Below are positions 45,537-64,000 of a DNA stretch of 64,000 bases, piece after piece. Both the position numbers and the translations under genes were made by a program. Origin of the DNA: Pelagomonas calceolata (taxonomy: Eukaryota). The stretch covers positions 2,480,001 to 2,544,000 of the forward strand of contig CAKKNE010000002.1 of NCBI GenBank assembly GCA_918797485.1, read 5' to 3'. The notes under the pieces are model-generated. The model saw nothing but the letters and a program-made list of their open reading frames with translations. It was not told the origin of the DNA and ran no database searches. The first letter of the stretch is position 1, and the number at the start of each line of letters is the position of its first letter.

Positions 45537-45831
45537 GTTTTAAATACCTTGCCCCCATGACGACGGTACCGCGCGACTTGCGGGATATTTTTGAAAATAG
45601 TCAAGTCAATCAATCATAAATCTAATACCGGTTCCTATGTTCTATGGGGTATTGGCGTTATCGCTGATAGTCGCAGATTATATCCTTGCCTGTTTTAAAT
45701 ACCTTGCTCCCATGACGACGGTACCGCGCGACTTGCGGGATATTTTTGAAAATGGTCAAGTCGGTCGATCATGAAACTAATACCGGTTCCTATGTTCTAT
45801 GGGGCATTGGAGGTATCGCTGATAGTCGCAG
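45537..45831. repeat. AT-rich diverged tandem dimer, 155-bp period
   Basis: GTTTTAAATACCTTGC... starts at 45537 and 45692; both units run to GCTGATAGTCGCAG. Confidence 0.92.
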
Positions 45832-48893: not shown

Positions 48894-49025
48894 ATTGTTG
48901 TTCACAAGGCCATCGAGTACATCGCGCGACCGAGATGATCGAGAGCTAACGTTGTGAGGCACTAGCACAGCATCAAGACAGCGTGGCTGGGCTCTGCCGT
49001 GTCTAGAACGCCTAATATTGGCAAG

Positions 49026-49571
49026 ATGCGTGTTTTATCCTTGGTGGTGGGTACCGCTGGTGCCTTCTCGACGTCGAGGAACCCGCTTGCGACGGCGCCG
49101 CGGAGGCAAGCCTCGTCGAGCCAGCTCCAGATGCTTGATGCTGCCGTAATCCAGGGCGGCGCGGCTGCCGTCGGCGGCCTCGCCGTGGGATTGGGTATGG
49201 CGTGGTTCAGCGAGCAGCAGGTCGAGCAGGGCGAGCAGCGCGGCAGCGACGCCGTCTCCGAGGCGACGCGGGCCAAGATGTACTTGCGCGGCGTCTTCGT
49301 TGTATCTTGAGCGTGTCGCGCGGGCGCGGCGACGGCGTCGCCGCGACTGCACGGCGCCACCACGCCGTCAACGAGAGTCTCGGCAGTTTCGCGACGACGG
49401 CGGCGCCCGCGCAGGTCGGCCATGTTCATGGAGGACGAGGTCCTGCCCGACACGACGCTCGACGACACCGTGAGCCGCATGGAGGCGGCCCTGGCCGCCG
49501 CGAAGGGCGAGGCCGCCGTCGAGGAGAAGGTCGAGGAGAAGCCGGCGTCGTCGATCGACGACGGGTGGTGA
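49026..49571 (+). CDS. Small plastid-targeted membrane protein, two exons (49026-49279, 49415-49571), 136 aa
   Basis: Leader AGA-FST; one TM; removing GT..AG intron 49280-49414 restores ...RAKMSAMFMEDE...IDDGW*. Confidence 0.75.
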
Positions 49572-49927
49572 GCTGTTCTCTCGAGCGTTTGTTTCTTTGC
49601 TTGGCGTAAGAGTGCTCGTTGTCGATTCTCTAGACCGCGTAGCTGTTGTGCGCGCGCAAAACCCGCCAGCTGGCCGGCCGCGCCGCACTACGGCCTACTG
49701 GTAGGATACCAAGCCCCCCTAGTTACATTATGTATTGCAGTAACTTGTAGGAAAACCAGGGGGTAGCTGAGCGCCCAGCGGCGCTGCTAAAAGCGCTGCG
49801 ATCTCGGTCCAGCTGCATCGCATTAAAACTTGATTGGGGGAGGCAGCCCACACGCAGCTGCTGCGCAGCATACTCTAATCAAGTTTTAATAACTTGTTCA
49901 CAGCCCGAGAACGTTGGTGCTGCCACG

Positions 49928-52900
49928 ATGCCGCGGGTGTGGAAGCCCGCGGCGGACGATCAGCACATCTTCGACGCCCTGCCAATGCCGGAGGGGGACG
50001 TCTTCCTCAGCGACGACGAGCTCCTCATGGAGATGGACGGCGTGGCGACGCGCGCCGCGCTCAACGCGGCGCTCGGTCCCACCGCGAGGACAAGGGTGAC
50101 CTTTGATGCCGAGGGTCGGTACTGGCGGAAGTCGTACGAAATTGATAAGGAGCCGCGGTGCATCTACTTCTTGCCAGCCGTGCAGAACGCGCGCGCGCTC
50201 GAGGAGTACCCCGATGGCGTCGAGCCGCCGTTCCCGCGACCAGAGGAGAAGTTCCAGTGCAAGAGGAAGCAGCCGCCCCGAGCGCCGCGCAAGCCGTCGA
50301 AGACGACGGCGCGGTCCGGCGAGAAGCGCCCGACGTCCGCGCGGCCTAGGATGTACACGACGCCCGGCGAGAAGGTCACGCGCGTGGATCCGGTTGATGA
50401 TGCTGAGCTGCTCGTGCCGGACGAAGACGTGGTCGACCTCGACGAAGTCGCGCCAGTACCACGGCCCGTGACACGACGAGATTTAATGGCCCTAGAGCAG
50501 CGCGCCGAAGACGCGCTCGCGGCGTGCGACCGCGCGGAAGCCGCGCGCGCCGCGGCCGTCGCGGCCCACGCGGAGCTACGCGACAGACAGGACGCAGTCT
50601 TCGCGAGGAGCGCCACCGACTCGGCAAGACTTATGCTTCTCTCTCTGGACCGCGAGGCGAACGCGCTCTCCGCGGAGAGAGCGGCACGACGGCGCGACGT
50701 TGATCGCCTTAGAGCCAAATTTTCACAAGAGAAAGAACTATGGAAAATAGACTGTGAGCGACGCGCGGCGGCGCGGCTAGACGAGGAGCGGCGGCGATTG
50801 GAGGAGGGGTTCCGGACAAACACGCGCGAGTTGCAGCGGCAACTCGACGCGCAGAGAACTGAAGTCGCCGATTTGAAAAAGAAACAAAGCCAGCTCAACC
50901 TCGAGCTTTATGGCCTTCGACGGCTTCGAGGCGCCTGGCTGGGTTCTCGTGTTGCGTATTTACCGGAGGAGCCGCCGCCGGATTCGGACTTCGAAGGCGA
51001 GTCGTTGTGGCCCGTGGTCCACGCCGTCGGCGACTTTCTCAGTAGAATTTGTGGTGGTACGCTCAAAAGAAAGCAACAGAAGTGTCTGCGTCTCCTAGCC
51101 GACTACGCGTGGTGTCAACACTCTCGCGGGCGGGGGGAGATTGGCCTCGTGCGAGCTCACTTTGCGTGCGCGGAGTACCGGCGCCTCCAGGAGATTTTCT
51201 CTCCAGCCGAACACTGAAGACCATGGACGTGGAGATGACGGGAACTACGCTGCGAGCGAGCGCCATGCGGGCCAGAGAGCGGGCGGCTCGTTGCGCTCGG
51301 GAGCACGTTGGGCAAGCACGTGATGCTGTTATTCCCCCAAGTTCGCGCTCCAGGAAACAGCCAAGCTGGTCGAGAGTTGCTGATGGCCACAAGGTTTCGG
51401 TTACGGAAACGTCCGCGGGCGACGGCACTTACGAGGCGGTCGGCATTGCGACGGGCGCGGTCCTCGACGCGTCATCGGAAAGCAGTATGGGCCTTGAGAC
51501 TGGACGCAGTCCCGCGGATCCGCGGAGGATCAGAGGCACGCAAGACGGCAGCAACATCACGAAAAGCGACGACTTTACGATGCAAGGGATCCACGTCAAC
51601 GACAGCCGCGCGGTCGACCGATCACTGGGCAAGCCTATCACCGACTTCCAGTCGCCTGATCGGGTTCATATTACTACGTTAGCCGTTGGCCACGAGAGCC
51701 ATGCCCTGTACGAAGCTTTAGACGACGTGACGGATCACTTCAGTACAGCGGCGACGGCGCAAACCGATGGTGTCTACCAGTCAGAGGCAGAGGGCCGCGC
51801 CGTTCACGTTGATTACGTCTGCTCGGGCGACATGGCCAACCTCCAGACGGTGTCGAAGAAGGGCTTCGCGACTGGGACGTCGGAGAACGCGCGGCCGTGT
51901 TATTGTTGCGCGCAGACCAACAGGCAGATGACGACGCCCAAGGTAGTTGACGACCTTTGCGACGTCTGCAGAGCAGCGGGTCGGTTAGTGTGCTACCACG
52001 CGGAGATGTCGACGCCGGCTGCCGTAGACGAGTGGCGCGCTACGGCTGCCGCTGCGCTCACGGAGCTCAGAGGGGAGCTGCCCCCAGCCTACCGCTACAT
52101 GCGCGAGGCCAAGACTTTAAGTGCGGCGCAGCTGCGCGAGCTCGCCGCGGAGGCTGGGCTCGATGCGGGCGGCACCTCGGCCCACTTGCACGCGCGCTTC
52201 GCTGCTTATTGCGGTCAGCATTGCTTGGAATTGGAAAACCCCAACCAAAACGGGTTTTACGCAAAGTTCGACTGTCGAACTGCGACCCCAGCACAAAAAA
52301 CGCAATTTTCGCTGGTCGTGAACGATTGTCTTGTTGATTTCGGCCTGGCGGTGACGGGCAACCTCGGTTCGCGCGTCGAGAAGCTGACGCAGCGCCTGAA
52401 ATTGGTTGACCAATATTACGAACTTCAAGCGCAATTAGAACACGCCACGCCAAATTCTGATGCGCTCATCTCCCTGGTCGAGCATATGGTCCCGTGCGTC
52501 TTGCATTTAGAAAACCGGACGCGCGAGAAGCTGTTGCGGCTCATCCTCAACAATTTATTTGTGATCTACGAGAAGAGCGTGGCCCTGGCGAAGCTGCGGC
52601 CGCTGGAGAAATTCGATTAGAACGAAAGGCCGGCTGCCCGAACGGCCGCGAGGGCAAGTGGACGGCGCCGCTCTCCAGGACGAAGATTCCGTCGAAGCCA
52701 TCCGTTGAATTGCGGCCGCGCCCGGAAGATCTTTGCTAACGTCGGCACGGCTCATCGGGCGTGCTTCCCGGACGACGCCAAGCGGCGGGTCGTCCTCGAC
52801 CTCGTCCGCGGCTACGAGGAATTGATGGTGCTATATCGAAAACGAAGATCTCACGGACGTCGAGATTGCCAAAGCCGACGACCTCGCCCAGGAGACCGCC

Positions 52901-53221
52901 ATCGGCTACTGACGGCCACGGCGAAGGCCCTCACGAACTACTTCCACATGATCGGCTCGGGCCACGTGCGGCTTATTTGCGAAAGTACCGGAACTGCGCC
53001 GCCGCGCTCGAACCAGGGGCGAGAGCGTGAACTTGACGATCGGCGCTTCCTCACGCGGACGCAGCGCGGCGGCCACTGCGGCCACGAGGCGACGCGGGCG
53101 ACGCGCGTCGCCGCGCTGGGCAAGTGGATGCAGCGGCGGATGATGTGGCTCACAGGCCTGGTCAAGCCCGGCGAGCTCAAGGTCATCGGCTGGAAGCAGA
53201 AGCGCGTGATGGGACTGGTAA
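49928..53221 (+). pseudogene. RAG1/Transib-like DDE transposase, frameshifted in this assembly (~1100 aa consensus)
   Basis: GTQDG, SGDMANL, CYCC, CVLHL, LNCGRARKI, LTNYFHMIGSGH, SNQG.E spread over ORFs 49928-51217, 51049-52620 and 52705 onward. Confidence 0.8.
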
Positions 53222-53229
53222 ATTGTGAC

Positions 53230-54867
53230 GCCTTCGTAGGCTGCGACGGTGGCGCGGACTTCGAGGCGACGGCTGAGCGTCGGCACGTCCGCGCCGGCGA
53301 CCGGGTAGGCCTCCCTAAACTCGCACGACGCCGCCGTCGCCGCCGTGATAGTGTAAACGACGCCGTCGAGCTCGAACTGTTTCATCTGCAACTCCGCGAC
53401 GACCGTCGCGGACAGCGTGTCTTCGACGGGCGCGACGGGCTCGACGGCCGTCTCCGGCGGTGGCAACGGCGACGGCGCCGTCAGATTCGTCACGTTCGTG
53501 GCACCGGCCTCGGCGGGCGACTTGACCTCGAAGCGGGCGTTGAGCTTCAATTCGCCGGTGTCGACGTTGTAAGTGCACGTCACCCGCACGAGCTTGTTGA
53601 ACTCGTCCAGCGTCGTCGGCACCCTCGTCTCCTTGAAGCCGCCTTTTAGGGGTACTCGTAGACCGCGTCGCCGCGCCAAGATCCGGAACTCGCTCTCCAG
53701 GCGCACCACGTCATCGCCGCTAAGCGAGAACCGCTCGAAACGGTAGAACTGGAGGCGCGTCACGTCGGCGCCGCCTGGCCGCCCGCGCGCCACGACGCGC
53801 TTCGCCGTGAACTTCTCGATCCACATGCCCGACAGCTTCGAGAGGTAGGCCCAGTACAACTTCGAAACACACGTCGTAACGGTACCGCTCTTCTTTTTCC
53901 CGCGGAGGAGCTCGCCGACGGCATCAGCAACGGCGACGCGCACGTTTAACAAGTCCCACAAGCCGCTCATCGTCGACGGCCTGTCGTCGATCAGCGACGC
54001 GACGCAGCGCTCTGGAAGCGGTCGCAGCGCCGGCGACGTACCATCAAACCACTGGTCGAGGGTGTAGACTCGCGCGAGGCCGTCGTAGGCACCACTTCTG
54101 GCCTTGTCCTGCGACACGACCCACACAGGCCCCACGACGGAGGTCACCGAGACCTCTCTAGAAGTCGACGAGAGGACGACATCGCAGGTGGACGCAGTCG
54201 ACCTGTTGATGTGTTTGGGCAACGCGTCGATCTTGTAGAGCTCCAAGACCTCGATCCTTGAGGACGACGAGGGCTGCAGGAAGACGACCATGCTGCCGTC
54301 CTTGAGCAACAGCGAGTCGCCCGAGAAGATGGGTCCGACCTTCGGGGCGAAGAACGGCGTCCGTCGCGCGGCGAGGACGTCCTCGAGCGCCTCGGGAGCG
54401 CGCGCCACCGTGACGGCGGTCTCCTCCTTCTTCACGACGAGCGGTTCCGAGCCCTGCGCGAACGGCTGGACCTGCACAGTGTCGCCGACGACGGCAATGG
54501 CGGTGCCCTCGACGCGCTCGTCGTCGCAGGCGACGACGACGCTGTCCAGGGACTGCGGGGCGCGGTTTGTTATGGTCTGAAGGACCCGCGGCCGCGCCGC
54601 GCCGTCGCCGCGCGAGCGCTTCTGGGACGACGAGGGCAGCTTTTCCCACGTCTCGCGGCGCCTCTTCAGCCCCTGTTTCTTGGGGGCGGGGTCCGGGGAC
54701 GGCGGCGGCGCGCGGCGCGACCGCGCGGCGCGGGGCAGCAGCTCGGTGGGCTTTACCCAGCCGCGCGAGCGCGCCTCATCCTCGACGTACTTCTGGAAGG
54801 TGGCCTGGTCCGGCGCGAGGCCCTCCAGGTACTTCAGCCTGCCCGGGGGCAGCGTATTTGCGGCCAT
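53230..54867 (-). CDS. Transposon accessory protein with Tudor-like and BAH-like segments (~545 aa; 3' end approximate)
   Basis: Long ORF from MAANTLP; BAH-like GDSLLL...ELYKIDALP...DVVLSSTSREVSVTSVVGPVWVV; stop position inferred from copy 2 (62496). Confidence 0.65.
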
Positions 54868-55123
54868 CGTCCAGTTAACTGATACCAGCAAACGACCAGT
54901 CTCTACATCTAATAAAGTCAACCAAACAAAAAGTCAACTTTGTCAAATCCCACTAGTCGGCCGTAGTGCTGCTGCAGTCGCGCTGCACTCCGCACCAGAG
55001 GCTCCGTTGTCGTAACGAAGCGCTTCTGGCATTAATTCTATCGCTCACCAGTACGCGTGTGAATCCTCAAAGCCCAGCGCTACGTAGTTCCACAAAAAAG
55101 CCTGTGAGAGCAGTGAGTGCATA

Positions 55124-56223: not shown

Positions 56224-56550
56224 CGATGAGTGCTCAATGATGCACTGCTCAGTGATGCGCACTGCTCAGTGATGCAGGCGTGGCAGGGTGGACTGCAGCG
56301 CAATGGCCAGCAGCGATGCGAATTCGCTCCGCTCCGAGTAGCACAGTATCTAATGGGTTGCCACGCAGCGCGGTACGATTAACAACCTCGCTACGTCGCG
56401 AACGAGTCGACTGACGTTTTAGCTAGCGGCATTAACGTACTAGTTGACATTACTCAAGTCGGGATCGCCTGCTGTTGCGGCCGCTTCAGCTACCCTCACA
56501 CCGTAAGGCTACGGTAGCATCACTGTGACACCCCGGAAGCGTACGCAAAG

Positions 56551-57318
56551 ATGAAACTCGCCGTCGCTCTCCTGCTCGCCCCCGCCGCGGCCTACGTGCC
56601 GCTGCGCGCTTCCATGCAGCGCGCCTCGACGCTGGTGCGCGCCGACGAGGAGCCGGAAGCCATGGACTTGGACCTCGGTGAAATGTTCGAGCTCTTCGAC
56701 GAGGCCGACCCGGAAGGCGTCGCCGAGCGCGAGGCCGCCAAAAAGGCCGAAGAGGAGGCCGCCGCGAAGGAGGCCGCCAAGCTGGCTATGATGGTAGAGG
56801 GCGCGTCGGCGCCGTTCGGCTTCTGGGACCCCGCCGGCCTGTCGAAGCTCGGCACGCCGGCGACGCAGGCCTGGTTCAAGGCCGCCGAGCTGAAGCACTC
56901 GCGCGTCGCGATGGCGGCGACGGTGGGCTGGATCGTCAACGAGGCCGGTATTGTGTTCGACGGCAACATCGCCACGGGCGTGCCGTTCTCGTCGCTGGGC
57001 AAGGGCGTCCAGGCGTGGGAGAACGTGCCCGACGCGGGCAAGCTCCAGATCATCTTGGCGGCGGGCGCTATTGAATTTGCCTCGGAGGCGAAGCAGCCGC
57101 ACTACATGCGCGGCGGGCGGCCGGGCCAGACGGCCGGGCCCTTCGGCTTGAGATTGTGGGACCCCCTGAACTACAACGGGGGCATGGACGAAGAAACCAA
57201 ACGCACGAAGCGCCAGATGGAGGTGAACAACGGGCGGCTGGCGATGATCGGCGCGGCGTCCTTCGTCGCGGCGTCGTACATCCCCGACTCCGTGCCCGCG
57301 CTGCCGTCGACGTGGTAG
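56551..57318 (+). CDS. Light-harvesting chlorophyll a/c (fucoxanthin)-binding protein
   Basis: PFGFWDPAGLS, AELKHSRVAMAA, WDPL, EVNNGRLAMIG; bipartite leader AAA-YVP. Confidence 0.95.
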   Translation: MKLAVALLLAPAAAYVPLRASMQRASTLVRADEEPEAMDLDLGEMFELFDEADPEGVAEREAAKKAEEEAAAKEAAKLAMMVEGASAPFGFWDPAGLSKLGTPATQAWFKAAELKHSRVAMAATVGWIVNEAGIVFDGNIATGVPFSSLGKGVQAWENVPDAGKLQIILAAGAIEFASEAKQPHYMRGGRPGQTAGPFGLRLWDPLNYNGGMDEETKRTKRQMEVNNGRLAMIGAASFVAASYIPDSVPALPSTW

Positions 57319-57337: not shown

Positions 57338-58852
57338 TTAACTCACAGCCGCCAGGAGGTCCTCGTAGTCATGGGCGTCGTCGCCGTCGAACCCCTCCTC
57401 CGCGTCGTCGGGCTCGCGCACGGCGAGGCTCCGGTCCGTCCACTGTGTCGGGCACTCGAAGGTCCTGCGCCGCGCCGCCGCGAGCTCCCGCTCGAGGCCG
57501 GCGACCTCCTTCGCCGGCGCGTCGACCCGCGCCTTGCGGAGCCGCCGTTCCAACGGTGCGACGTCGTACGCGTCGGCGCCGTGGGCGGCCCGGAACGTCG
57601 CGAGGCACTGGCGCCGCGGGCCGGCCTCGGCTAAGATAGCCGCGACGTCGCCGTCGGCGAGGCCGTACGCGCCCTTCAGCAGGCCCGCCACGTCCGCCGC
57701 GTACACGAAGGGGCAGTCGTGGCATCCGCCTTCCTCGCCCTTGCCGGCCGGGTCGCCTTTGATCATCTTGTCGCAACCGGTGGGGGAGTAAACCACGCGT
57801 TGGCCCTCGAGGCCGTAGGCGTGTCGCACGCCGTAGCTCCACTTGTTCTCACGCATCGACCAGTCCTTCCAGCGCACCTTACCGAAGGCGATCGTGATGT
57901 CGACCGGCGCCCCCAACGCGGACAACAAGCACCAGTACTGGTACCGCGCCTTGTGCTTCAGGTGTTTTCGGTGGCGGAGCTGATTGTGCATCCGCACGAA
58001 GCAAGGCGCCACGCGGCGCTTCGCGACGGCGTCGTCGACGTCGCCAATACAATTGATTGCCAGGCGCGCGCCCGGCCGATGGGCCGCGGCGACCGCGCTG
58101 GCCCACCGCACGAGCCGTTCCGCGGCGGCCACCGCCGGGTCGTCGGAAATGCCGACGACCGCCTCCGCGGACCGCAGCGCGCCGCGCCGCAGCGCCGCCG
58201 AGAGCTTGCGGCGGAAGCGCCGCACCGCGATGCCGCGGCACGCGGCGCCGTCCCTGAGGAAGAACGCGACACGCCGGAACACGACGACGCCGCGCCGGTC
58301 GCCGCTCATGTCGTTGAGGAACGCCGGCGTCGCCCGTCGCGCGACGATGGCGCCCGCGCCGCTGGGGCGCAGGTACGCGGCCACGTGCTCCGGCGCCTCG
58401 AGGTCGGGGTCGTCCTGGCGCTCGCCGGGCCGCGCGCGCGCCGCATCAACAGCGGCGAGGCGCGTCGCGCCCGCGTGGAGGCGTCGGCGGTAGCGGTCCA
58501 CCTCCTTGTCGAGGAACGCGCGCGCCGCGGCGCCGCGGTGACCGACGGCGCCGCACGCGACGGCAGCGCGCGCCGCGAAGTGCGCCACGGCGTCGAGGTC
58601 CGCGTCTTGAAACGTGGACGACGCGTAGCGATACGCGAGCGCGGACTCGACAGCCTCGAACCGCTGCTCCGCGTCCGGACACGCCGCGTACTCCCAGGCG
58701 TCGTCGTCGCTGTCGTCGCTGTCGTCGCCGCTCAGGTACGCGAGGTCGCCCGCGCGGGCCTCGACCGCTACTCGTTTCACTTGCGCGGCGCGGTCGGGCT
58801 CACCGATGGCCGCGGCGGCCTGCCGGAGGACCGCTGCGATTGCTGCATCCAT
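57338..58852 (-). CDS. Divergent DNA primase large-subunit (PRIM2/PriL) Fe-S-domain protein
   Basis: APCF...HLKHKARYQY, YGVRHAYGLEG, GCDKMI, HDCPF, RQC. Confidence 0.75.
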   Translation of the reverse strand: MDAAIAAVLRQAAAAIGEPDRAAQVKRVAVEARAGDLAYLSGDDSDDSDDDAWEYAACPDAEQRFEAVESALAYRYASSTFQDADLDAVAHFAARAAVACGAVGHRGAAARAFLDKEVDRYRRRLHAGATRLAAVDAARARPGERQDDPDLEAPEHVAAYLRPSGAGAIVARRATPAFLNDMSGDRRGVVVFRRVAFFLRDGAACRGIAVRRFRRKLSAALRRGALRSAEAVVGISDDPAVAAAERLVRWASAVAAAHRPGARLAINCIGDVDDAVAKRRVAPCFVRMHNQLRHRKHLKHKARYQYWCLLSALGAPVDITIAFGKVRWKDWSMRENKWSYGVRHAYGLEGQRVVYSPTGCDKMIKGDPAGKGEEGGCHDCPFVYAADVAGLLKGAYGLADGDVAAILAEAGPRRQCLATFRAAHGADAYDVAPLERRLRKARVDAPAKEVAGLERELAAARRRTFECPTQWTDRSLAVREPDDAEEGFDGDDAHDYEDLLAAVS

Positions 58853-59181
58853 GCCGCTGCTGCTCTGCCCAGCAGATTGCAGTGTGTGCGCGTAGCAGCG
58901 CTGTGCGAGCCCGTTCTCTCCAAGCGGGGCGAGCGTTATCACTACGGCCTACTGGTAGGATACCAAGCCCCCCTAGTTACATTATGTATTGCAGTAACTT
59001 GTAGGAAAACCAGGGGGTAGCTGAGCGCCCAGCGGCGCTGCTAAAAGCGCTGCGATCTCGGTCCAGCTGCATCGCATTAAAACTTGATTGGGGGAGGCAG
59101 CCCACACGCAGCTGCTGCGCAGCATACTCTAATCAAGTTTTAATAACTTGTTCACAGCCCGAGAACGTTGGTGCTGCCACG

Positions 59182-62100
59182 ATGCCGCGGGTGTGGAAGC
59201 CCGCGGCGGACGATCAGCACATCTTCGACGCCCTGCCAATGCCGGAGGGGGACGTCTTCCTCAGCGACGACGAGCTCCTCATGGAGATGGACGGCGTGGC
59301 GACGCGCGCCGCGCTCAACGCGGCGCTCGGTCCCACCGCGAGGACAAGGGTGACCTTTGATGCCGAGGGTCGGTACTGGCGGAAGTCGTACGAAATTGAT
59401 AAGGAGCCGCGGTGCATCTACTTCTTGCCAGCCGTGCAGAACCGCGCGCGCGCGCTCGAGGAGTACCCCGATGGCGTCGAGCCGCCGTTCCCGCGACCAG
59501 AGGAGAAGTTCCAGTGCAAGAGGAAGCAGCCGCCCCGAGCGCCGCGCAAGCCGTCGAAGACGACGGCGCGGTCCGGCGAGAAGCGCCCGACGTCCGCGCG
59601 GCCTAGGATGTACACGACGCCCGGCGAGAAGGTCACGCGCGTGGATCCGGTTGATGATGCTGAGCTGCTCGTGCCGGACGAAGACGTGGTCGACCTCGAC
59701 GAAGTCGCGCCAGTACCACGGCCCGTGACACGACGAGATTTAATGGCCCTAGAGCAGCGCGCCGAAGACGCGCTCGCGGCGTGCGACCGCGCGGAAGCCG
59801 CGCGCGCCGCGGCCGTCGCGGCCCACGCGGAGCTACGCGACAGACAGGACGCAGTCTTCGCGAGGAGCGCCACCGACTCGGCAAGCAAGCGGCGCTCTCT
59901 CTGGACCGCGAGGCGAACGCGCTCTCCGCGGAGAGAGCGGCACGACGGCGCGACGTTGATCGCCTTAGAGCCAAATTTTCACAAGAGGCATGGAAAATGG
60001 ACCAGTGAGCGACGCGCGGCGGCGCGGCTAGACGAGGAGCGGCGGCGATTGGAGGAGGGGTTCCGGACAAACACGCGCGAGTTGCAGCGGCAACTCGACG
60101 CGCAGAGAACTGAAGTCGCCGATTTGAAAAAGAAACAAAGCCAGCTCAACCTCGAGCTTTATGGCCTTCGACGGCTTCGAGGCGCCTGGCTGGGTTCTCG
60201 TGTTGCGTATTTACCGGAGGAGCCGCCGCCGGATTCGGACTTCGAAGGCGAGTCGTTGTGGCCCGTGGTCCACGCCGTCGGCGACTTTCTCAGTAGAATT
60301 TGTGGTGGTACGCTCAAAAGAAAGCAACAGAAGTGTCTGCGTCTCCTAGCCGACTACGCGTGGTGTCAACACTCTCGCGGGCGGGGGGAGATTGGCCTCG
60401 TGCGAGCTCACTTTGCGTGCGCGGAGTACCGGCGCCTCCAGGAGATTTTCTCTCCAGCCGAACTACTGAAGACCATGGACGTGGAGATGACGGGGAACTA
60501 CGCTGCGAGCGAGGCCATGCGGGCCAGAGAGCGGGCGGCTCTCGTTGCGCTCGGGGAGACGTTGGGCAAGCGCTGATGCTGTTATTCCCCACGAAGTTCG
60601 CGCTCCAGGAAACAGCCTGGCTGGCAGAGTTGCTGATGGCCACAAGGTTTCGGTTACGGAAACGTCCGCGGGCGACGGCACTTACGAGGCGGTCGGCATT
60701 GCGACGGGCGCGGTCCTCGACGTCATCGGAAAGCAGTATGGGCTCCTTGAGACTGGACGCAGTCCCGCGGATCCGCGGAGGATCAGAGGCACGCAAGACG
60801 GCAGCAACATCACGAAAAGCGACGACTTTACGATGCAAGGGATCCACGTCAACGACAGCCGCGCGGTCGACCCGATCACTGGCAAGCCTATCACCGACTT
60901 CCAGTCGCCTGATCGGGTTCATATTACTACGTTAGCCGTTGGCCACGAGAGCCATGCCCTGTACGAAGCTTTAGACGACGTGACGGATCACTTCAGTACA
61001 GCGGCGACGGCGCAAACCGATGGTGTCTACCAGTCAGAGGCAGAGGGCCGCGCCGTTCACGTTGATTACGTCTGCTCGGGCGACATGGCCAACCTCCAGA
61101 CGGTGTCGAAGAAGGGCTTCGCGACTGGGACGTCGGAGAACGCGCGGCCGTGTTATTGTTGCGCGCAGACCAACAGGCAGATGACGACGCCCAAGGTAGT
61201 TGACGACCTTTGCGACGTCTGCAGAGCAGCGGGTCGGTTAGTGTGCTACCACGCGGAGATGTCGACGCCGGCTGCCGTAGACGAGTGGCGCGCTACGGCT
61301 GCCGCTGCGCTCACGGAGCTCAGAGGGGAGCTGCCCCCAGCCTACCGCTACATGCGCGAGGCCAAGACTTTAAGTGCGGCGCAGCTGCGCGAGCTCGCCG
61401 CGGAGGCTGGGCTCGATGCGGGCGGCACCTCGGCCCACTTGCACGCGCGCTTCGCTGCTTATTGCGGTCAGCATTGCTTGGAATTGGAAAACCCCAACCA
61501 AAACGGGTTTTACGCAAAGTTCGACTGTCGAACTGCGACCCCAGCACAAAAAACGCAATTTTCGCTGGTCGTGAACGATTGTCTTGTTGATTTCGGCCTG
61601 GCGGTGACGGGCAACCTCGGTTCGCGCGTCGAGAAGCTGACGCAGCGCCTGAAATTGGTTGACCAATATTACGAACTTCAAGCGCAATTAGAACACGCCA
61701 CGCCAAATTCTGATGCGCTCATCTCCCTGGTCGAGCATATGGTCCCGTGCGTCTTGCATTTAGAAAACCGGACGCGCGAGAAGCTGTTGCGGCTCATCCT
61801 CAACAATTTATTTGTGATCTACGAGAAGAGCGTGGCCCTGGCGAAGCTGCGGCCGCTGGAGAAATTGATTAGAACGAAAGGCTTCGGCTGCCCGAACGGC
61901 CGCGAGGGCAAGTGGACGGCGCCGCTCTCCAAGGACGAAGATTCCGTCGAGAAGATCTCGTTGAATTGCGGCCGCGCCCGGAAGATCTTTGCTAACGTCG
62001 GCACGGAGCTCATCGAGGCGTGCTTCCCGGACGACGCCAAGCGGCGGGTCGTCCTCGACCTCGTCCGCGGCTACGAGGAATTGATGGTGCTATATCGAAA

Positions 62101-62487
62101 ACGAGAAGATCTCACGGACGTCGAGATTGCCAAAGCCGACGACCTCGCCCAGGAGACCTACCATCGGCTACTGACGGCTTTCACGGCGAAGGCCCTCACG
62201 AACTACTTCCACATGATCGGCTCGGGCCACATTACTGCTTATTTGCGAAAGTACCGGAACTTGTACCGCTACTCGAACCAGGGGCAGGCGCGAACCGCGA
62301 TCTTGATCGCCGCTTCCTCACGCGGACGCAGCGCGGCGGCCACTGCGGCCACGAGGCGACGCGGGCGACGCGCGTCGCCGCGCTGGGCAAGTGGATGCAG
62401 CGGCGGATGATGTGGCTCACAGGCCTGGTCAAGCCCGGCGAGCTCAAGGTCATCGGCTGGAAGCAGAAGCGCGTGATAGACTGGTAA
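59182..62487 (+). pseudogene. RAG1/Transib-like transposase of copy 2, frameshifted
   Basis: ORFs 59182-60576, 60545-62410 and the tail ending KQKRVIDW* at 62487; LTNYFHMIGSGHITAYLRKYRNLYRYSNQG. Confidence 0.8.
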
Positions 62488-62495
62488 ATTGTGAC

Positions 62496-64000
62496 TTACT
62501 CTTCGTAGGCTGCGACGAGTGCATGGACTTCAGACGTTGGACGCGTGAGCGTCGGCACGTCCGCGCCGGCGACCGGGTAGGCCTCCCTAAACTCGCACGA
62601 CGCCGCCGTCGCCGCCGTGATAGTGTAAACGACGCCGTCGAGCTCAAACGTTTCATCTGCAACTCCGCGACGACCGTCGCGGACGCGCGTCTTCGACGGG
62701 CGCGGACGGGCTCGACGGCCGTCTCCGGCGGTGGCAACGGCGACGGCGCCGTCAGATTCGTCACGTTCGTGGCACCGGCCTCGGCGGGCGACTTGACCTC
62801 GAAGCGGGCGTTGAGCTTCAATTCGCCGGTGTCGACGTTGTAAGTGCACGCCACCCGCACGAGCTTTGCTGAACTCGTCCAGCGTCGTCGGCACCCTCGT
62901 CTCCTTGAAGCCGCCTTTTAGGGGTACTCGTAGACCGCGTCGCCGCGCCAAGATCCGGAACTCGCTCTCCAGGCGCACCACGTCATCGCCGCTAAGCGAG
63001 GTCCGCCGCCCGGTAGAACTGGAGGCGCGTCACGTCGGCGCCGCCTGGCCGCCCGCGCGCCACGACGCGCTTCGCCGTGAACTTCTCGATCCACATGCCC
63101 GACGAGCGAGAGGTAGGCCCAGTACAACTTCGAAACACACGTCGTAACGGTACCGCTTCTTCTTTTTCCCGCGGAGGAGCTCGCCTGACGGCATCAGCAA
63201 CGGCGACGCGCACGTTTAACAAGTCCCACAAGCCGCCATCGTCGACGGCCTGTCGTCGATCAGCGACGCGACGCGCCTGGAAGCGGTCGCAGCGCCGGCG
63301 ACGTACCATCAAACCACTGGTCGAGGGTGTAGACTCGCGCGAGGCCGTCGTAGGCACCACTTCTGGCCTTGTCCTGCGACACGACCCACACAGGCCCCAC
63401 GACGGAGGTCACCGAGACCTCTCTAGAAGTCGACGAGAGGACGACATCGCAGGTGGACGCAGTCGACCTGTTGATGTGTTTGGGCAACGCGTCGATCTTG
63501 TAGAGCTCCAAGACCTCGATCCTGAGGACGATTTGGGGCTGCAGGAAGACGACCATGCTGCCGTCCTTGAGCAACAACAGCGAGTCGCCCGAGAAGATGG
63601 GTCCGACCTTCGGGGCGAAGAACGGCGTCGTCGTCGCGCGGCGAGGACGTCCGGCGCGCTCGGGAGCGCGCGCCACCGTGACGGCGGTCTCCTCCTTCTT
63701 CACGACGAAGCGGTTCCGAGCCCTGCGCGAACGGCTGGACCTGCACAGTGTCGCCGACGACGGCAATGGCGGTGCCCTCGACGCGCTCGTCGTCGCAGGC
63801 GACGACGACGCTGTCCAGGGACTGCGGGGCGCGGTTTGTTATGGTCTGAAGGACCCGCGGCCGCGCCGCGCCGTCGCCGCGCGCGCTTCTGGGACGACGA
63901 GGGCGCTTTCCCCCGCCGTCCGCGGCGCCTCTTCAGCCCCTGTTTCTTGGGGGCGGGGTCCGGGGACGGCGGCGGCGCGCGGCGCGACCGCGCGGCGCGG
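62496..64000 (-). pseudogene. Accessory BAH-like ORF of copy 2, multiply frameshifted, 5' end outside the window
   Basis: Fragments 62496-62981, 62992-63360 and 63260-63766 match the copy 1 ORF. Confidence 0.7.

Follow-up and report, generated by a model that had tools for sequence, protein, structure and literature searches.

A multicopy two-gene transposon of Pelagomonas calceolata with a predicted RAG1/Transib-type transposase, probably allied to the CMCT clade

The window analysed here, 64,000 nucleotides of the alga Pelagomonas calceolata (contig CAKKNE010000002.1, positions 2,480,001 to 2,544,000, forward strand), carries two copies of a transposon with short terminal inverted repeats (TIRs) and two convergent open reading frames (ORFs), ORF1 encoding the transposase and ORF2 an accessory protein. 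The element is a multicopy, likely active two-gene transposon, probably of the cut-and-paste kind, with an enzyme for which the RAG1/Transib fold is predicted, and it likely forms an unnamed lineage of its own beside the CACTA-Mirage-Chapaev-Transib (CMCT) clade. According to the account in PMC12730594, that clade comprises EnSpm/CACTA, Mirage, Chapaev, Transib and Plavaka as well as ESTA and Lanisha, all of which have RAG1-like motifs. Our verdict is that the Pelagomonas element represents a new two-gene lineage allied to this clade and is not a RAG-type transposon.

A RAG1/Transib-type catalytic core is supported by fold matches together with conserved D/D/E, CxxC and His residues. The AlphaFold2 model of ORF1 (predicted local distance difference test score, pLDDT, 88.6; predicted template modelling score, pTM, 0.88) matched RAG1 and HzTransib in Foldseek with E-values of 5.5e-10 and 5.8e-7, and Hermes with 0.2. 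VIA-align gave Z 18.2 for RAG1 (464 residues aligned, spanning RAG1 459-1006; root-mean-square deviation 4.4), 17.1 for HzTransib (416 aligned, 4.0), 16.8 for BbRAGL (470 aligned, 5.1) and 8.9 for the P element (355 aligned, 6.0); the RAG1 and Transib fold matches tie within about 1 Z, and the ranking was similar in a wide search over 48,161 chains. The preliminary description of this DNA had allowed that the D/D/E residues might not form an RNase H active site; in the model both Asp lie at beta-strand ends and the Glu at a helix start, as in RNase H folds, a placement that fits such a site. On these models ORF1 is predicted to belong to the RAG1/Transib structural class. No structure of EnSpm, Chapaev, Mirage or Plavaka stood among the matches listed, which leaves these families in play, and because Chapaev and EnSpm structures are absent there, a PDB match to RAG1/Transib does not separate Transib from either. 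A viral fold library contained no match at E<=0.001.

At the sequence level, ORF1 (49928..53221, plus strand; no introns needed) is represented by the natural record P0158, a complete transcript-derived protein of 1106 aa that is colinear with the DNA and contains D543/D638/E1040, C661/C664, C860/H863 and H1014/H1020, as well as a second Cys/His cluster near 681-694 and SAP-like helices. Every motif previously listed as colinear with the RAG1 core is found in the natural protein P0158/P0001, where the motif around the Glu reads SNQGFE; in the window it is disrupted by assembly indels alone. A search over cluster representatives with ORF1 returned 837 matches at E<=1e-3 (150 of them listed), and 111 proteins were aligned; the following counts use P0001 numbering and only alignment rows covering each column. 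The first Asp (D135) is conserved in 57/57 rows, the second (D230) in 68/68 and the Glu (E632) in 108/109, with about 400 residues separating the second D from the E. C253 and C256 (each 72/72) form a CxxC 22 residues after the second D, and C452 (103/108) and H455 (107/108) are similarly retained. The His pair, H606 (109/110) and H612 (108/109), is spaced by 5 in 103/111 sequences, while six lack the pattern and two have another spacing. The second cluster in P0001 is C273/C276/C284/H286. Pfam and NCBIfam gave a sub-threshold SAP match for ORF1, coiled-coil noise and nothing else. There was no meaningful PDB sequence match for ORF1 or ORF2, and no RAG1 match for ORF1 in Pfam or among PDB sequences. 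A placement in Transposase_21 (which we take to be PF02992) had also been considered, yet neither this nor any other CACTA Pfam family matched at E<=0.05 in 45 proteins, and no Plavaka Pfam match to the ORF1 family was among those listed. In relatives P0011-P0038 the N-terminal third holds an unnamed Cys/His cluster and then a coiled coil; of these two, the Pelagomonas protein retains the coiled coil and little of the cluster.

Copy 1 of the transposon occupies 49686..54968 (plus strand; 5283 bp as it stands in the window and 5316 bp in contigs built from short reads), between a 22-bp left TIR at 49686..49707 (plus), starting CACTACGGCC, and a right TIR at 54947..54968 (minus) that is identical to it at 19/22 positions. 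Copy 2 (58940..64000, plus) is cut by the window end; its ORF1 lies at 59182..62487 (plus) and its ORF2 at 62496..64000 (minus), with a start beyond the window. The repeats, the length and the second copy had been described correctly beforehand, as had the convergent stops of copy 2 (62487/62496), 8 bp apart. The two copies are 97.1% identical; besides 39 substitution columns, they differ for the most part by small indels of 1-3 bases. By itself the TIR match is not unique, five further pairs in the window, mostly GC-rich, reaching the same cut-off; the left boundary is set independently by the flank of copy 2, which departs at the first C, and both boundaries by a 5316-bp short-read contig that covers exactly 49686-54968 (runs X1 and X3). 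Beyond the terminal 22 bp, no second element common to both ends was found, bar short GC-rich words. An internal inverted repeat (49822-49890; 29-nt arms, 11-nt gap) lies in the left subterminal region, just 5' of ORF1.

The depth of the same contig is 208 against about 17 for single-copy DNA in run X1 and 44 against about 4 in X3, and the ratio is similar in X5. Since one contig collects them at about 11-12 times single-copy depth, P. calceolata has about 11-12 near-identical copies, too alike for separate assembly. Proteins 96-100% identical to ORF1 are recorded in NCBI on two multi-megabase contigs under the name Pelagomonas calceolata, which supports the earlier assignment of the host to the stramenopiles. 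Identical indel corrections in three DNA runs and in raw RNA reads, together with a recorded intact 1106-aa transposase, mark the window's frameshifts as errors of assembly. The published genome of the species is described as Nanopore-based and polished (PMC9481584), and the window presumably comes from it. Short reads cross the two junctions of copy 1 without differences, their pairing resting on the assembly, and no empty-site joint for this copy was among the matches listed. Copy 2 is absent in run X5, because a single-copy contig of that run tracks the window over 58165-58940 and then departs into 1793 bases of other sequence; its left junction is present in X1 and X2. Copy number and one polymorphic insertion support the mobility of this young, multicopy element, which is likely still active.

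The partner gene, ORF2 (53230..54867, minus), encodes a 547-aa accessory protein, with P0156 as a natural version at 95% identity. Relatives of ORF1 are encoded on 312 stretches in a metagenome scan, and locus counts given here refer to the best 80. In loci that extend 600 bp or more downstream, the ORF2 family lies on the opposite strand in 61/64 and on the same strand in none, with a stop-to-stop gap of 6-118 bp (median 34; 31 loci). The tail-to-tail gene pair pointed out earlier is therefore real and conserved; Harbinger likewise has two tail-to-tail genes (PMC12477816). The identities of ORF1 and ORF2 correlate (rho 0.50; 0/999 permutations), and both genes have the same nearest neighbour in 25/32 loci; as kin share both genes, this is co-inheritance only. 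RAG2L is a six-bladed kelch protein (PMC10629977). In contrast, kelch motifs number 0 in the sequence of P0156 and 0 in 44/48 relatives, with at most 2 in any, and there was no kelch Pfam match in 36 members of the ORF2 family. Because the family lacks the kelch signature of RAG2L, the convergent pair, as judged from sequence, is not a RAG1L-RAG2L pair, and the ProtoRAG-style reading of it is not supported. A single-sequence model of ORF2 failed, with a pLDDT of 34.5, and a complex prediction for the cognate ORF1 and ORF2 of locus L051, made without alignments, gave no verdict, with a score of 0.00. By eye, the N-terminal part of ORF2 may be BAH-like, a pattern confirmed by no tool.

Both TIRs were found in 10/80 related loci, spaced by 4.8-5.2 kb and starting CACTACG, CAATAC or CCTTA, and three near-identical copy pairs at different sites confirm the boundary at the first C. 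The CACTA terminus is common to the Pelagomonas element, L005 and L056 and missing in the other eight complete relatives; four of the ten complete relatives have CC..GG ends, whereas the Pelagomonas element has CA..TG. The related loci have 37-50% GC, and our guess is that their other hosts are diatoms. In a FastTree phylogeny (89/90 rows, no outgroup), Pelagomonas ORF1 grouped with a protein of Pelagophyceae CCMP2097 on long branches. The patterns used picked up no relative in IMG/VR or GTDB, and the TIR pattern matched no viral or metagenome contig. A fourth end type, CATTACGG, directly adjoins another family member at L053:1-255 and L054:4711, an arrangement that suggests nested or clustered insertions. 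In L061, an inverted repeat of 340 bp is not taken for a miniature inverted-repeat transposable element, as its right arm lies inside the ORF1 reading frame.

The left flank of copy 1 ends CGCCG and the right flank starts CTGCT, without a target-site duplication (TSD). No 2- or 3-bp match was found in 11 paired ends, the window locus included, and no match of 4-10 bp in 10 pairs; L020, a twelfth pair, also has none. AT or TA adjoins 14/36 TIRs (background 0.14, p 2e-4). When an element has many copies, a contig may fuse flanks from different ones and so hide a 2-bp TSD; random flank pairing is expected to match at 2 bp about 12% of the time, and no cross-match was found between the flanks of L051/L058 or of L005/L078. 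The flanks as assembled point to a stagger of 0 or 2 bp and not of 5 bp, and a true lack of TSD and a hidden TSD of 2-3 bp appear about equally probable. Spy, with an IS5-type enzyme, is a described TSD-less group (PMC4122938). At L016 (95-115/5133-5143, 7 bp) and L020 (220-226/5159-5168, 5 bp) flank words recur at a small offset from the ends, by chance or through imprecise repair on insertion.

Transcription was followed in raw reads of RNA run X21, with strand calibrated on neighbouring host genes and RNA not assignable to a single copy. RNA of ORF2 is strong (depth up to about 1600) and sense RNA of ORF1 low (depth 4-40). Abundant antisense RNA covers the catalytic part of ORF1 (51316..52214, minus) and has no long ORF, the longest frame begun by ATG in the corresponding stretch of copy 2 measuring 121 aa; a second, weaker antisense RNA covers the 5' part (49736..50600, minus, upper end approximate). 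Nine linked substitutions at 50053-50105, present in about 20% of the reads, suggest a diverged related element or subfamily in the sample.

As described in PMC10629977, RAG, BbeRAGL and HzTransib cleave by nick and hairpin. By analogy with these enzymes, an ORF1 dimer would bind both 22-bp TIRs, nick and hairpin the flanking DNA and then link the released 3' ends to a new target, where insertion would occur with a short or zero stagger and a mild preference for AT/TA beside the ends. ORF2 may act as a co-inherited helper, most likely a DNA- or chromatin-binding one and not a RAG2-type propeller, and the antisense RNA might damp transposase output from ORF1.

Several results weigh against an enzyme of the RAG1/Transib class in a lineage of its own. 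Identity between ORF1 and RAG1 or Transib is only 10-15%, and a one-to-one pairing of the ORF1 D/D/E with D600/D708/E962 of RAG1, which we take to be the catalytic counterparts, would be drawn from fold output that comes without residue pairs. The tie of Pelagomonas ORF2 to the second-gene family is weak: it is the best match to the family profile, and a colinear one, yet at an E of 0.03 among 1085 sequences (all four listed matches being ORF2 forms), and hhalign gives E 0.0025 with a probability of 12% over 260 columns; as 0/1000 shuffles attain its profile score, the sequence may be a distant member of this conserved, unnamed family. The likely separate lineage is argued from motif spacing, ends, ORF2 and missing Pfam matches, and Repbase may already hold these elements as EnSpm or under another name. 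No earlier description of the family was found in the literature, Repbase and subscription journals being out of reach; the available text of PMC4738411, PMC8245031, 10.1101/2020.07.03.163634 and 10.1101/2021.09.26.461848 was also weighed for novelty. Lastly, a flank swap between L048 and L050 gives GT|GT and AT|AT, two 2-bp matches, as would a 2-bp TSD in chimeric contigs.

The swap fits a divergent EnSpm/CACTA element, or another CMC family that already has a name, with a TSD of 2-3 bp and a TnpA-like accessory ORF2, as do the CACTA terminus, the agreement of the copy 1 flanks CCG/CTG at 2/3 positions, the AT/TA enrichment beside TIRs and the RAG1-like motifs that PMC12730594 describes throughout CMCT. 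We nevertheless regard this as unlikely, given that 45 proteins gave no Transposase_21 or CACTA Pfam match, relatives also end CAATAC or CCTTA, the His spacing is 5 in 103/111 sequences and a 2-bp match occurs in 0/11 pairs, including the window locus (apparently a long-read assembly), with no cross-match at L051/L058 or L005/L078. Considerably less probable is a basal Transib or RAGL transposon in which ORF2 would be an unrecognised RAG2 counterpart binding the transposase: RAG1, HzTransib and BbRAGL are the top structural matches across the whole core, the genes converge like those of ProtoRAG, another pelagophyte carries a true RAGL (PMC9435367) and TSD and TIR are described as variable within Transib (10.64898/2026.08.26.747230), but ORF2 has neither kelch motifs nor a kelch Pfam match, RAG1 is matched neither in Pfam nor in PDB sequences, a 5-bp TSD occurs in 0/10 pairs and no second conserved TIR element follows the terminal 22 bp. 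Dozens of frameshifts in both window copies could point to a decayed or domesticated relic or an assembly duplication artefact, a reading made barely credible by the same corrections in raw RNA reads as in the short-read contigs from three DNA runs, by the single contig that holds all copies in X1/X3, by the copy 1 junctions covered without differences, by the complete 1106-aa transcript protein and by the lack of copy 2 in X5. Relative to these alternatives, a CMCT-allied two-gene lineage remains preferred. A bolder version of it, which we put forward tentatively and with some doubt, is a superfamily-level, two-component lineage with a RAG1 fold, widespread in algae or other aquatic eukaryotes and active in Pelagomonas, with TSD-free blunt strand transfer and an independent, obligatory, non-RAG2 convergent partner.

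Around the two copies, an expressed host gene lies just left of copy 1 (49002-49571, plus), with a 135-nt GT-AG intron at 49280-49414, and a gene of the light-harvesting chlorophyll a/b-binding family lies between the copies (56518-57318, plus). The gene for the DNA primase large subunit (57338-58850, minus) has copy 2 about 90 bp upstream of its likely start codon, and the insertion could affect the primase promoter in strains that have it. A tandem pair of 140-bp repeats, 93% identical and 155 bp apart, is found at 45537-45831.

The lineage would extend the clan from which RAG1 arose by a large branch, and as a cultured alga carries an intact copy that moved recently, the chemistry is testable. 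The origin of RAG1-RAG2 itself is not moved by the Pelagomonas element; a convergent partner gene taken on for a second time is relevant to how that pair came about. If the missing TSD is real, the RAG/Transib scaffold can go from a five-base target stagger to none at all, a change that would be relevant to the mechanism of target capture and to scar-free insertion tools.

With the RAG1 core, ProtoRAG (BbeRAGL) and RAGL, the Pelagomonas element shares the predicted fold of the whole core (Z 17-18), the D/D/E with CxxC and His pair, the CAC start and the convergent two-gene layout. It differs from them in its second gene, which is not kelch-like, and in an extra Cys/His cluster and SAP-like helices that lie after the second D and ahead of the E. 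RAGL and ProtoRAG have a bipartite TIR resembling a recombination signal sequence (heptamer plus second element), whereas the Pelagomonas TIRs are short and symmetric, and the 5-bp TSD of RAGL, ProtoRAG and Transib was not seen at the window locus or in 10 pairs, chimeric contigs being possible. Transib, represented by HzTransib, is similar in fold, CAC terminus and DDE core, but its transposase has about 500 aa against about 1000-1100 aa in the Pelagomonas-type family and is its single gene, while this family has a conserved second gene and ends in CACTACG, CAATAC or CCTTA. The RAG-like transposon that the preliminary description mentioned from Aureococcus does exist: AanRAGL of Aureococcus anophagefferens has a bipartite TIR, CACACCCAAACCT, a RAG2L that lies upstream and points the same way, and a TSD of 5 bp (PMC9435367). 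It resembles the Pelagomonas element in its pelagophyte host, two genes and polymorphic insertions, and is distinct from it in TIR, gene order and TSD.

Likeness to the CMCT clade, for which PMC12730594 describes an H(3-4)H motif and TSDs of 2-5 bp, extends to a DDE triad in an RNase H fold, a C(2)C after the second D, a His pair and CA..TG termini. The His spacing is 5 instead of 3-4, some relatives have CC..GG ends, no member lineage is matched in Pfam, and a 2-5 bp TSD was not seen in Pelagomonas-type pairs, chimeric contigs again being possible. From EnSpm/CACTA the element has the CACTA terminus but not the Transposase_21 domain, and Chapaev is described as carrying an N-terminal Chapa zinc finger (PMC4411706). 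Spy, without a TSD as is perhaps the case here, and Harbinger, with its tail-to-tail genes, are both of IS5/PHIS type, in contrast to the RAG1/Transib-like fold predicted for ORF1. Because its His pair departs from H(3-4)H, the Pelagomonas element is filed as allied to the CMCT clade, outside the named lineages.

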